Shown here piece by piece: positions 26,101 through 29,100 of a DNA stretch of 64,000 bases. Under the pieces are notes generated by a model. That model worked only from the letters and a program-made list of their open reading frames with translations, made no database searches and was not told where the DNA came from. Made by a program: the position numbers and the translations under genes. The stretch spans positions 6,014,001 through 6,078,000 of the forward strand of contig NW_024704759.1 in the NCBI RefSeq assembly GCF_018977255.1, in the 5' to 3' direction. This DNA is from Callorhinchus milii. Taxonomy: Eukaryota. Every line of letters begins with the position of its first letter. Position 1 is the stretch's first letter.

Positions 26101-29100
26101 CTGTTTGGGAAACATTGCTGTGCACAACTGTCTGCCGCCGTTCGCCCACAAAATATACAGTCAATCCACTTTACAATAAATCCTGTGAAGCACTTTGAGA
26201 CGTCTCAGTGAAATGATATCAAATGCAAGTATTATCGTTACATTTGAACAGGAGTGTTTTCACAACAGGACTATGTCTCAAAGCATTCCATGGGATATAC
26301 ACTGTAAAGTGGAGTGACTGTGGGAGAATGTGTGCTTATGACACTTGTAAAACTGTTCCCTAGTCACTGCCTGCAAGAACTGCAGCCAACATTTGGGAAG
26401 AGGGAAAAAGAGTTCACTAAATAAACTGCTACAATACTTTGGTTGATTGTAAATTGGCACAGCGACTCCACATTTCCATGGTGTCTGTCGCACTGCCTAA
26501 AGATGCTAGTTTGTGCTTTGACTTATATATTCTGTGAAGCACTTGAGACGTCTCGAAGATGTGATGAGGCCCGATATCAAATGCAAGGATTATTATTACT
26601 TCCTGATTGACTGCCTAATCTAATGGCAATTCTGTCTCTGTCTCTTCAGTTCTGTTTCTGTTGCCAAAGGGAGCTTTTCTTCACCTGGGCTCTCCCCTGC
26701 CACCTCTGTAAAAAGGTGAGATTTGCCTTTCTGTTTTGGTGGTGTTCATCTAGTAAGTGCAAGACTGGTCTACAGAACTGAAATGCTGTTTGGGGTGGGG
26801 TCTATTGGATGCAATAACCAAATAGTGCAACATGTAAACTTATTGCTAATGAACACAGACATTTTATGGAGGTTGACCTCAGTAAAGGTGGTGGCCATCT
26901 GAACACGACTAGTTTTGTTCTTGTAAACCTGCTTCACAGTTTATGGCCAATATTAACCAATGACATTTATTGTCAACAGGTCAATGTGTTTAGAGTACTC
27001 TATGAAGGTAAGAATATTGAAATAAAGCCTTGGTTTATGTGTTGGTGATTCCTGTCTGGGAGTTGAGGGCGGGGGGGTACTTTTGGGGATGAGGGGGTAG
27101 TATTTTGAAGGGAAAGATTTAAAGTATAGCTGGAATTCACAGCTATCCTCATCTAGATGAGCCTCTTGGAACACTCTCTAAAGATCCTAGGTTCCTGTTC
27201 GATCCAGAAAAGATCATTGCAGAGAATGATGCATGCAGAGAATCATTCATTCCACCAAAATGAAGCTTTGAACATCTTCAGAGTTTTAAAACATGGTATT
27301 CCATTAGGTTCAATTATTCAAGGTGTGCTTTAAGAAATGGCAGCAGGTGGCACCCTTTTGCAGGGAAATAGTTTGTTCCTTTCAGGGTGCCAGAAATGTC
27401 ATATACATCCAATAGGATATACAATATATATGATCTATTGAGTGCATGTGTGTGCACACGTCCGTCCATCCCTTTAATAGGACCCTAAAGTAGGGGAAGT
27501 TGTTAAAAATTTTAAATCCTCCATTGGGCTCTGTTTTAGGTCTCATTCTCACTTCCTCAGGCTTCAGGAGGACTGAAATCTAAACTTTTCCCAGTCAAAA
27601 ATCGAACTTGTAGCCATCGGCTTGAAGACTTTGGGCTTAGCCTCCTCAAACCCATGGCGTTAAAACCAGGTGATCAAACTCCCATCGGAGATAACTGTTT
27701 CAATTGTGCAATTCCTCCATCTCATTGCAGACATAGCTCCGCTTCAATGTATGCATCTCCCAATCAACTTCTTTCAACCATTGACTGTGAGGAAGGTGGA
27801 GACCAGTATAAGGGCGGAAGCCTGCAGATACAGCTGGAGAAAGGCACTGCACTGGGACTCCTCCAGGTAAGAGGGCAATTCACACGGATATCCCAGAAAT
27901 TCTGTCACAATAGGATTCCCAGCAAGTAGTAAACTTATGGAACAGGCTCCCTAGGGAGACCGTGGAAGCAGAAAATTTAATTTGTTTCAAGAACAAATTA
28001 GATAGATTTCTGCTAGAAAATAATCTCTCCGAATACGTTATATAGCTTGGGATATGACAAGTCAAACGACTGCCAGGATGGTGGAAGGCAAACTAGATGG
28101 ACATTGGTCCTCTTTAGCCAGCAAATTCTTATGTTCCTAAGTTCAGTAGAGTTACTAATTAAGTTACATCAGTAACTAAGATATTGGCTGTGTGATGTAT
28201 TGGTTTCACATCGCAGATGAATCCCTCAAATGAAATCAAAAACGCATTACGCATGCTAATTCTAGTTGGTTGGCTGTCTTTCCACCTCACAGGTTTTAGC
28301 TGACTAGAACTCCATTCTATCTCTGGAATTTCCATGTGTAGGTGGGATGCATGGAATTCTCAGTTTGGATACTCTTAAGCACGGTGATGGGTTTCCACAT
28401 GTGTCAGATACCTGACTGACAAAGAAAAACAATTCACAGTGATACAACCTCACCCCAATCGATCACTTTTCATCAGATCTCTGAGGATCATGAGAGATTC
28501 AGATGAAAAAGGCCCTTCAGCCCATTTGATCGCACCCTGGATACTGGACTCATTTAGAAAAAATATCTTGATCTGACGGGAAGAGGGTTGGGGGGGCAGA
28601 GGGAATTCTGGAAGGATGTGGCTAAATGGGCCTTCTTCATCCAACCCAATCTTGTGATTATAGAGGCTACAAGAACCTTTGCTCAGAGGGTTTTATAAGG
28701 TGGAATGCCTTCCCACAAATTACCTAAACCACGGCTGTAACAGCATTCAAATGGAATTGGTGGTTGGGTGGGGGAATAAAGGTAATCAGGAGAGAGATTA
28801 GAGTGGTGACACTCCAGGGAAACGAGCATCAGGGTGGAACTCTCTTTCTGTACAGTATAACCTCATTAATTTTAACAATAACTTGCATTTATATAGTGCC
28901 CCTCGCAACGGTAGCATGCCAGAGGGTAGGATGCTACCCTGCATGAGGGTATATGGTTATTTACTTTTCTATCAGTGGGATGATTATAAGATGACGGTGT
29001 CCTCCTCTAGGTGGAAAGGTCAGGGTGAGGACAAAGAACTAGAAGGTGCAGTTGGAAAGCGTCTTCGGGTTAACAGTTGTTGAGCTGCACATACAAACCC

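Follow-up and report, generated by a model that had tools for sequence, protein, structure and literature searches.

Cartilaginous fishes splice the 28-nt micro-exon of SPIRE3 in a shifted reading frame, probably through a one-base gain in exon 13 and a one-base loss in exon 15, and the resulting peptide is probably kept by selection within a remodelled cysteine-rich module. The zinc finger at this site was likely rebuilt rather than ruined, and the change is a trait fixed in the clade rather than recent damage.

Results

Identity and structure of C. milii SPIRE3

Within the 64,000-nt stretch of Callorhinchus milii DNA that was analysed (the window), SPIRE3 occupies the + strand with a coding span of 16945..29083, and its 16 exons encode 562 aa in a single open frame with AG/GT at 15/15 introns. 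This model was identical to RefSeq XP_007883862.1 (an older RefSeq model) except for A496T, the T allele of which was also present in genomic run X3. The newer RefSeq model (P0001) reads exon 13 through into the intron (26716-26781), as a possible retained-intron isoform or a mis-model. Exon 6, used as a protein query, had a single match, 'protein spire homolog 1-like [Callorhinchus milii]'. The protein opens with a KIND domain (PF16474, E 8.3e-41), followed by a WH2 region that aligned with the SPIRE1 WH2 cluster (a Pfam WH2 match was absent here and in the SPIRE1 controls), a central region that aligned poorly and in which the MYO5-binding GTBM would be expected, the Spire box and the remodelled zinc-finger region. 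Exon 16 (29011..29134) contains the stop codon at 29081-29083. Nonsense-mediated decay has a usual limit on the distance from stop to donor, and the SPIRE3 stop lies at its edge, 51 nt upstream of the exon-16 donor. In three species the C-terminus of SPIRE3 reads ...SC.

The gene had been taken for a SPIRE1 type in a first-pass annotation; phylogenetic analysis assigned it to SPIRE3. A quick tree was built from 35 hand-picked proteins with the zinc-finger region left out. The shifted-frame proteins (C. milii plus five from sharks and rays) formed one clade in this tree (SH-aLRT 100, with long branches) and grouped with 12 bony-vertebrate 'spire-like' proteins, separated from SPIRE1, SPIRE2 and eight ungrouped rows by an SH-aLRT of 100. 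The available text of a preprint (bioRxiv 10.1101/591974) names the third SPIRE group SPIRE3 and mentions a C. milii member. SPIRE1 and SPIRE2 of the same genome lie on other contigs (C2 and C14).

PIGT (Gpi16) lies tail to tail with SPIRE3 on the - strand (exons at 31800-39150), and a beta-tubulin gene follows on the + strand (46360-49790). In the last exon of the beta-tubulin gene, a short G run near 49400 displaces the reading frame by one base, which is likely a slip of the assembly. Human SPIRE1 and SPIRE2 also adjoin beta-tubulins, and the shared neighbours fit an origin of the SPIRE genes by genome duplication.

Genomic reads and cDNA at the shifted exons

Three consecutive exons on the + strand carry the shift. 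Exon 13 (26650..26715, 66 nt) encodes the CxxC pairs C464/C467 and C479/C482 and ends TGT AAA AAG before the gt donor, in phase 0, with a run of five As at 26710..26714. The micro-exon, exon 14 (26980..27007, 28 nt, phase out 1), reads VNVFRVLYE, and in the old frame SMCLEYSMK. Exon 15 (27731..27866, 136 nt, phase out 2) encodes P497, C500 and H502 in the ancestral frame again. These lengths, the phase 0 end of exon 13 and the open frame are as first claimed, in the sequence and in the 16-exon model alike.

We examined 7/24 listed sequencing runs as assembled contigs, which may drop rare isoforms. Four of the runs were genomic and came from one study. A single contig of run X1 (26576-27950) spanned both indel sites with four gap letters, all of them intronic. 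Run X2 was clean in exon 15 and had no indel listed at 26710-26715, with 3 gap letters in its contig unplaced, and runs X3 and X4 covered both sites with no indel. None of the listed runs was recorded as RNA, yet X5, X10 and X11 are cDNA, because their contigs carry spliced joints. Contigs from X10 and X11, which represent two studies, joined 26715 to 26980 and 27007 to 27731 through GT..AG introns without gaps, the very junctions that had been deduced from the sequence. The cDNA contigs also joined exon 12 (25580..25684, Spire box) to exon 13, X5 joined exon 15 to exon 16, and X10 ended loosely in exon 16. Two polymorphisms were seen in exon 15: 27736 G>A (A496T) in X3, and the silent 27741 G>C in X3, X10 and X11.

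The reads thus have five As in exon 13 and no extra base in exon 15, and the first-pass view that this is a real event rather than two assembly errors was borne out. The added base does fall within an A run, and the beta-tubulin exon shows that this assembly probably contains a homopolymer slip nearby; however, the same letters in four genomic samples and two cDNA studies, and the same peptide in six other species, leave practically no room for two homopolymer or consensus errors that imitate a compensated frameshift.

The shift has left exon 13 symmetrical (phase 0 to 0), and its skipping alone would preserve the frame; skipping of the micro-exon, exon 15 or both leads to early stops. No exon-skipping joints were found among the contigs examined, which drop rare forms.

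The ancestral frame and the two inferred compensating changes

Comparison with the paralogues of the same genome located the two changes. The three exons at the zinc finger measure 66/28/136 nt in SPIRE3, 71/28/146 nt in SPIRE1 and 68/28/116 nt in SPIRE2, and the totals (230, 245 and 212 nt, respectively) are each 2 mod 3. The phases are 2/0/2 in SPIRE1 and SPIRE2 and 0/1/2 in SPIRE3. The phases 2 then 0 given for SPIRE1 in the first-pass annotation therefore hold for both C. milii paralogues. The 137 nt given for the next SPIRE1 exon agrees with the gorilla SPIRE1 protein, provided that the exon ends at the same point, but not with the chimaera exons of 146 and 116 nt, which are the same length mod 3. 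The SPIRE1 and SPIRE2 equivalent of exon 13 ends TGTAAAAG (TGT AAA AG) with four As, one fewer than in SPIRE3. A gain in the exon 13 A run and a loss at the start of exon 15, as originally proposed, match this difference in As and in phases. The pair consists of two non-3n indels that sum to 3n, with the paralogues as outgroups for DNA and the bony orthologues as outgroups for protein.

Since CHLC is read in frame, the +1 has to lie 3' of the C482 codon. The -1 is confined to the opening 8 nt of exon 15 (27731..27738), because an invariant Pro codon begins after 8 nt of this exon, compared with 9 nt in old-frame SPIRE3 (12/12 of the old-frame SPIRE3 proteins listed); the earlier placement at the exon 15 start stands, but can be resolved no further than this interval. 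Exon 15 aligned with QCMHLPVSFFK of bony SPIRE3. The exact indel positions are not fixable, and a V-for-V alignment at the start of the micro-exon permits a three-indel history. In the frame given by the +1 alone, exon 15 is free of stops today over its 45 codons (chance about 1 in 9). We also considered, and rejected as weak, the idea that a stop-free shifted frame had pre-adapted SPIRE3; the fraction of stop-free synonymous codings was 0.51 for bony SPIRE3 versus 0.39 for other peptides.

The old frame can still be recognized in the micro-exon. It reads PVCSQCCKK in the C. milii SPIRE1 and AVCGSCSLK in SPIRE2 (xxCxxCxxx), and 18/28 nt are identical between SPIRE3 and SPIRE1. Both paralogous micro-exons carry TAA in the shifted frame, in which SPIRE1 reads TRVLTVL(stop)E and shares 4/9 residues with VNVFRVLYE. 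The old-frame reading SMCLEYSMK was scored against 20 bony SPIRE3-like micro-exon peptides, chosen by eye and 12 of them in the tree; its score was reached or beaten in 190/100,000 base shuffles and in 275/127,946 27-mers of the window. When all 9-mers of the proteins were back-coded, the micro-exon peptide ranked top for best possible old-frame score in 5/5 chondrichthyan proteins (rank 1 of 554, 589, 559, 464 and 519) and yielded LICSECCMK-like readings. Two Cys codons of the old frame had been described as decayed. Both changes are present, but as a zinc ligand only one was lost: TAC replaces the second Cys of the CxxC, the TGT of the first is intact, and TCT stands at the next position, which is not a ligand and where frog SPIRE3 has S, H or N. 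The Cys-removing changes are silent third positions in the new frame (GTA, CTC).

This loss also bears on translation. The A-rich run at the first site might invite ribosomes to slip, and two slips would let them translate the old frame and restore the zinc finger by such recoding. However, a ligand is gone from the old frame (CLEY), the fourth CxxC is missing in any case, conservation follows the new frame and two opposite slips would be required; we give recoding virtually no credence.

Spread and age of the shift

Orthologues carried the shift throughout the cartilaginous fishes. Among 295 proteins fetched, the first two CxxC were found in 219, which comprised 192 old-frame proteins, 19 shifted-frame proteins and 8 others (the intron read-through model of this gene, alternative or truncated models and one pattern offset). 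The 19 shifted proteins came from Callorhinchus, Pristiophorus, Chiloscyllium, Scyliorhinus canicula, Cetorhinus, Mobula and Hemitrygon. The peptide [VI]N[VLM]FRVLY[ED] was thus present in 7/7 informative cartilaginous fishes (a chimaera, four sharks and two rays), in agreement with the alignment of related species that had been suggested as a check; the shark and ray evidence consists of annotated proteins, whose gene models may share annotation bias. Two shark models, whale shark P0007 and S. torazame P0138, were uninformative, and neither reaches the region in frame. The whale shark model has a missed exon and then exons 12-13 in another frame, which is the alternate frame of the C. milii window, a mis-annotation. 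A third protein search for further orthologues returned two already-known ones alone.

The old frame (xxCxxCxxx) was found in SPIRE3-like proteins of coelacanth, bichir, caecilian, newt, frogs, crocodile, snake and bird, except that the bichir isoforms P0290 and P0293 depart from the frame at the micro-exon. In the text available to us, PMC6238376 places splits at ~450 and ~420 Myr ago. The indel pair would predate the ~420-Myr split of chimaeras and sharks because the shifted peptide is common to chimaera, sharks and rays while bony SPIRE3 is old-frame. Fixation of both indels likely falls in the interval from ~450 to ~420 Myr ago, and we have high confidence in the compensating pair and in this dating. 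Five SPIRE3-like proteins in the set are unnamed (P0140, P0153, P0186, P0218 and P0244), two of which fall beside bichir in the tree. Should any of the five come from a euteleost, the published loss of SPIRE3 in euteleosts would have to be reconsidered.

Constraint and cysteine remodelling after the shift

Conservation was measured as mean pairwise identity among five full-length orthologues. Identity was 0.83 in the micro-exon, 0.76 in exon 13, 0.62 in exon 12, 0.56 in KIND, 0.47 in exon 15, 0.21 in exon 16 and 0.49 over the protein, and the new peptide ranked 19/554 windows (7 ties). Between the chimaera and six elasmobranchs, 6 or 7 of the 9 peptide residues were identical, compared with 46-51% over the whole protein. 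SPIRE3 is fast-evolving, with long branches and an exon 16 that is barely conserved.

Only CxxC pairs 1 and 2 remain in 7/7 cartilaginous species, and the third (micro-exon) and fourth pairs are gone; all eight Cys are invariant in 7/7 bony SPIRE3. The first-pass annotation had the removal of one zinc-ligand pair with the downstream frame kept, which is correct. Its description of a broken finger was right about the loss and understated it, since the fourth CxxC is lost too and the peptide is strongly conserved across sharks and rays. The four remaining cysteines (C464, C467, C479, C482) were invariant in 16/16 aligned SPIRE3 proteins. F472/F473/W475 were invariant in 7/7 cartilaginous species, as were H480, C500 and H502, which occurred in 3, 8 and 5 of 9 bony proteins. 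The Spire box has gained a CxC (C443-x-C445, exon 12, 25625-25633), present in 19/19 shifted-frame and 0/192 old-frame proteins. Some species of the clade have an extra Cys near 525 and at the C-terminus.

Exon 16 contained no fourth CxxC and had no detectable likeness to the ancestral last exon. No remnant of that exon was found downstream by HMM, tblastn or frameshift-tolerant alignment; in the last of these, the score of the exon-16 region was equalled or beaten by 17/59 random stretches and 20/60 shuffles. AlphaFold2 modelled the chondrichthyan C-terminal part (7 rows) with a pLDDT of 39.9, versus 49.5 for a bony-SPIRE3 control of equal depth, and the control model had no Foldseek match at E<=0.001. 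Pfam FYVE_2 had no match in 17 proteins, SPIRE1 controls included. Profile searches against solved structures gave one chance-level match for the shifted set (E 0.15) and weak zinc-finger matches for the control (E 0.011 and 0.58). The Atlas feature leads were a RIM zinc finger (0.80) and FYVE_2 (0.79), with all scores <0.9.

These patterns weigh on whether the finger is alive. The shift could be real and old, with a dead finger, a micro-exon whose bases are retained to serve splicing, and a peptide that arises passively in a dispensable tail. The lost fourth CxxC, the poorly conserved exon 16 and the existence of the intron-13 read-through model would suit this account, as would the loss of SPIRE3 in mammals and the preference of known compensatory pairs for dispensable regions, each as given in the text available (bioRxiv 10.1101/591974 and PMC8935012, respectively). 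Splicing signals alone could account for part of the micro-exon conservation. However, exon 13 is of normal size and nearly as conserved, the micro-exon is 1.5 times as conserved as KIND both after the shift and in the bony old frame, and the four Cys, F472/F473/W475, H480, C500, H502 and the new CxC are invariant in 7/7 species. We therefore regard a dead finger as unlikely. Judged from these comparisons, constraint probably acts on the new amino acids and not on the bases alone.

A module that works without zinc is somewhat less likely still. Here the CxC and other cysteines would be lipidated or disulfide-bonded, with FRVLY as a membrane anchor; the CxC falls in the helix of canonical Spire boxes (control model H4-22, low confidence), and the extra cysteines near 525 and at the C-terminus would be in keeping with this. 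Against it, the two CxxC pairs and the W/F core are kept exactly, which from general knowledge of the family points to metal binding. The favoured reading is a remodelled, likely zinc-binding module, because the four Cys and the aromatic core are strictly kept, as are the new CxC and peptide.

Discussion

We propose that exon 13 gained one base at its end and that exon 15 lost one at its start, both changes being fixed before the chimaera/shark split and together preserving the downstream frame. The shift would have removed the third CxxC and, with the separate loss of the fourth, four of the eight ligands. In cross-braced fingers one site pairs C1, C2, C5 and C6 and the other C3, C4, C7 and C8. 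The old two-zinc FYVE-type finger should be unable to form because each of these sites has lost two ligands, and the retained C464/C467/C479/C482, with or without the new C443/C445 and C500/H502, are predicted still to bind zinc, in a different arrangement. The hydrophobic, basic peptide may pack within the module or contact the membrane. Considered as a whole, we put this structural reading at about even odds. SPIRE3 would still be an actin nucleator of the KIND/WH2 type, but its targeting to membrane or RAB would be altered. A stronger version, in which C443-x-C445 and C500/H502 replaced the lost ligands and the frameshift-born peptide has been indispensable in a new metal-binding fold for >400 Myr, is tentative and would be the less expected outcome.

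Whether frameshifts in animals yield useful new protein sequence is an open question, on which the SPIRE3 case bears. Living orthologues retain both states (coelacanth or frog versus shark), which allows a direct comparison of before and after at the bench.

C. milii SPIRE3 resembles the rest of its subfamily in the KIND, WH2 region, Spire box, first two CxxC and 28-nt micro-exon, and in its PIGT and beta-tubulin neighbours. According to the preprint text available (bioRxiv 10.1101/591974), the three SPIRE subfamilies share an identical exon-intron structure except between GTBM and SB. In contrast, two intron phases differ here, another frame is used for the micro-exon and the FYVE_2 finger lacks C5-C8, which contradicts that statement for this region and explains why pipelines mis-model the gene. 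On departures from the canonical domain array, the same text says only that they occur in 'some SPIRE3'; it makes no mention of these differences and does not use the word 'frameshift'. The FYVE_2 domain has eight zinc cysteines in four CxxC pairs and binds RAB and membrane (PMC11231147, Fig. 5 legend and other text available). FYVE_2 and Slp-homology fingers (rabphilin, RIM, melanophilin, SPIRE1/2) share with SPIRE3 a Spire-box segment followed by CxxC...W...CxxC; unlike them, SPIRE3 lacks four of the eight zinc cysteines and gains the Spire-box CxC.

The event was undescribed in the literature searched, with no match in five text supplements of PMC11231147; picture-only supplementary figures, preprint supplements and the CyMoBase alignment may show it. 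The closest parallels are the compensatory frameshift pairs in RAB36, ARHGAP6, NCR3LG1, RASSF4, SPATA24 and wds (Biba, Klink and Bazykin 2022, PMC8935012), a paper whose main text, as available, contains neither 'spire' nor 'shark'. Those pairs likewise combine a +1 and a -1 that are separated by about 30-40 coding nt, lie in the 3' part of a gene that evolves fast and create a new peptide. As far as that text goes, the six high-confidence cases of this systematic survey are young, occur in 1-11 species and lie mostly in poorly conserved regions, whereas the SPIRE3 pair straddles two introns, disrupts a metal-binding motif that is otherwise invariant, is >400 Myr old by our dating and has a peptide among the best-conserved parts of the protein. 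Compensatory frameshift pairs are a known kind of event, and the SPIRE3 case is a new one by age and site.
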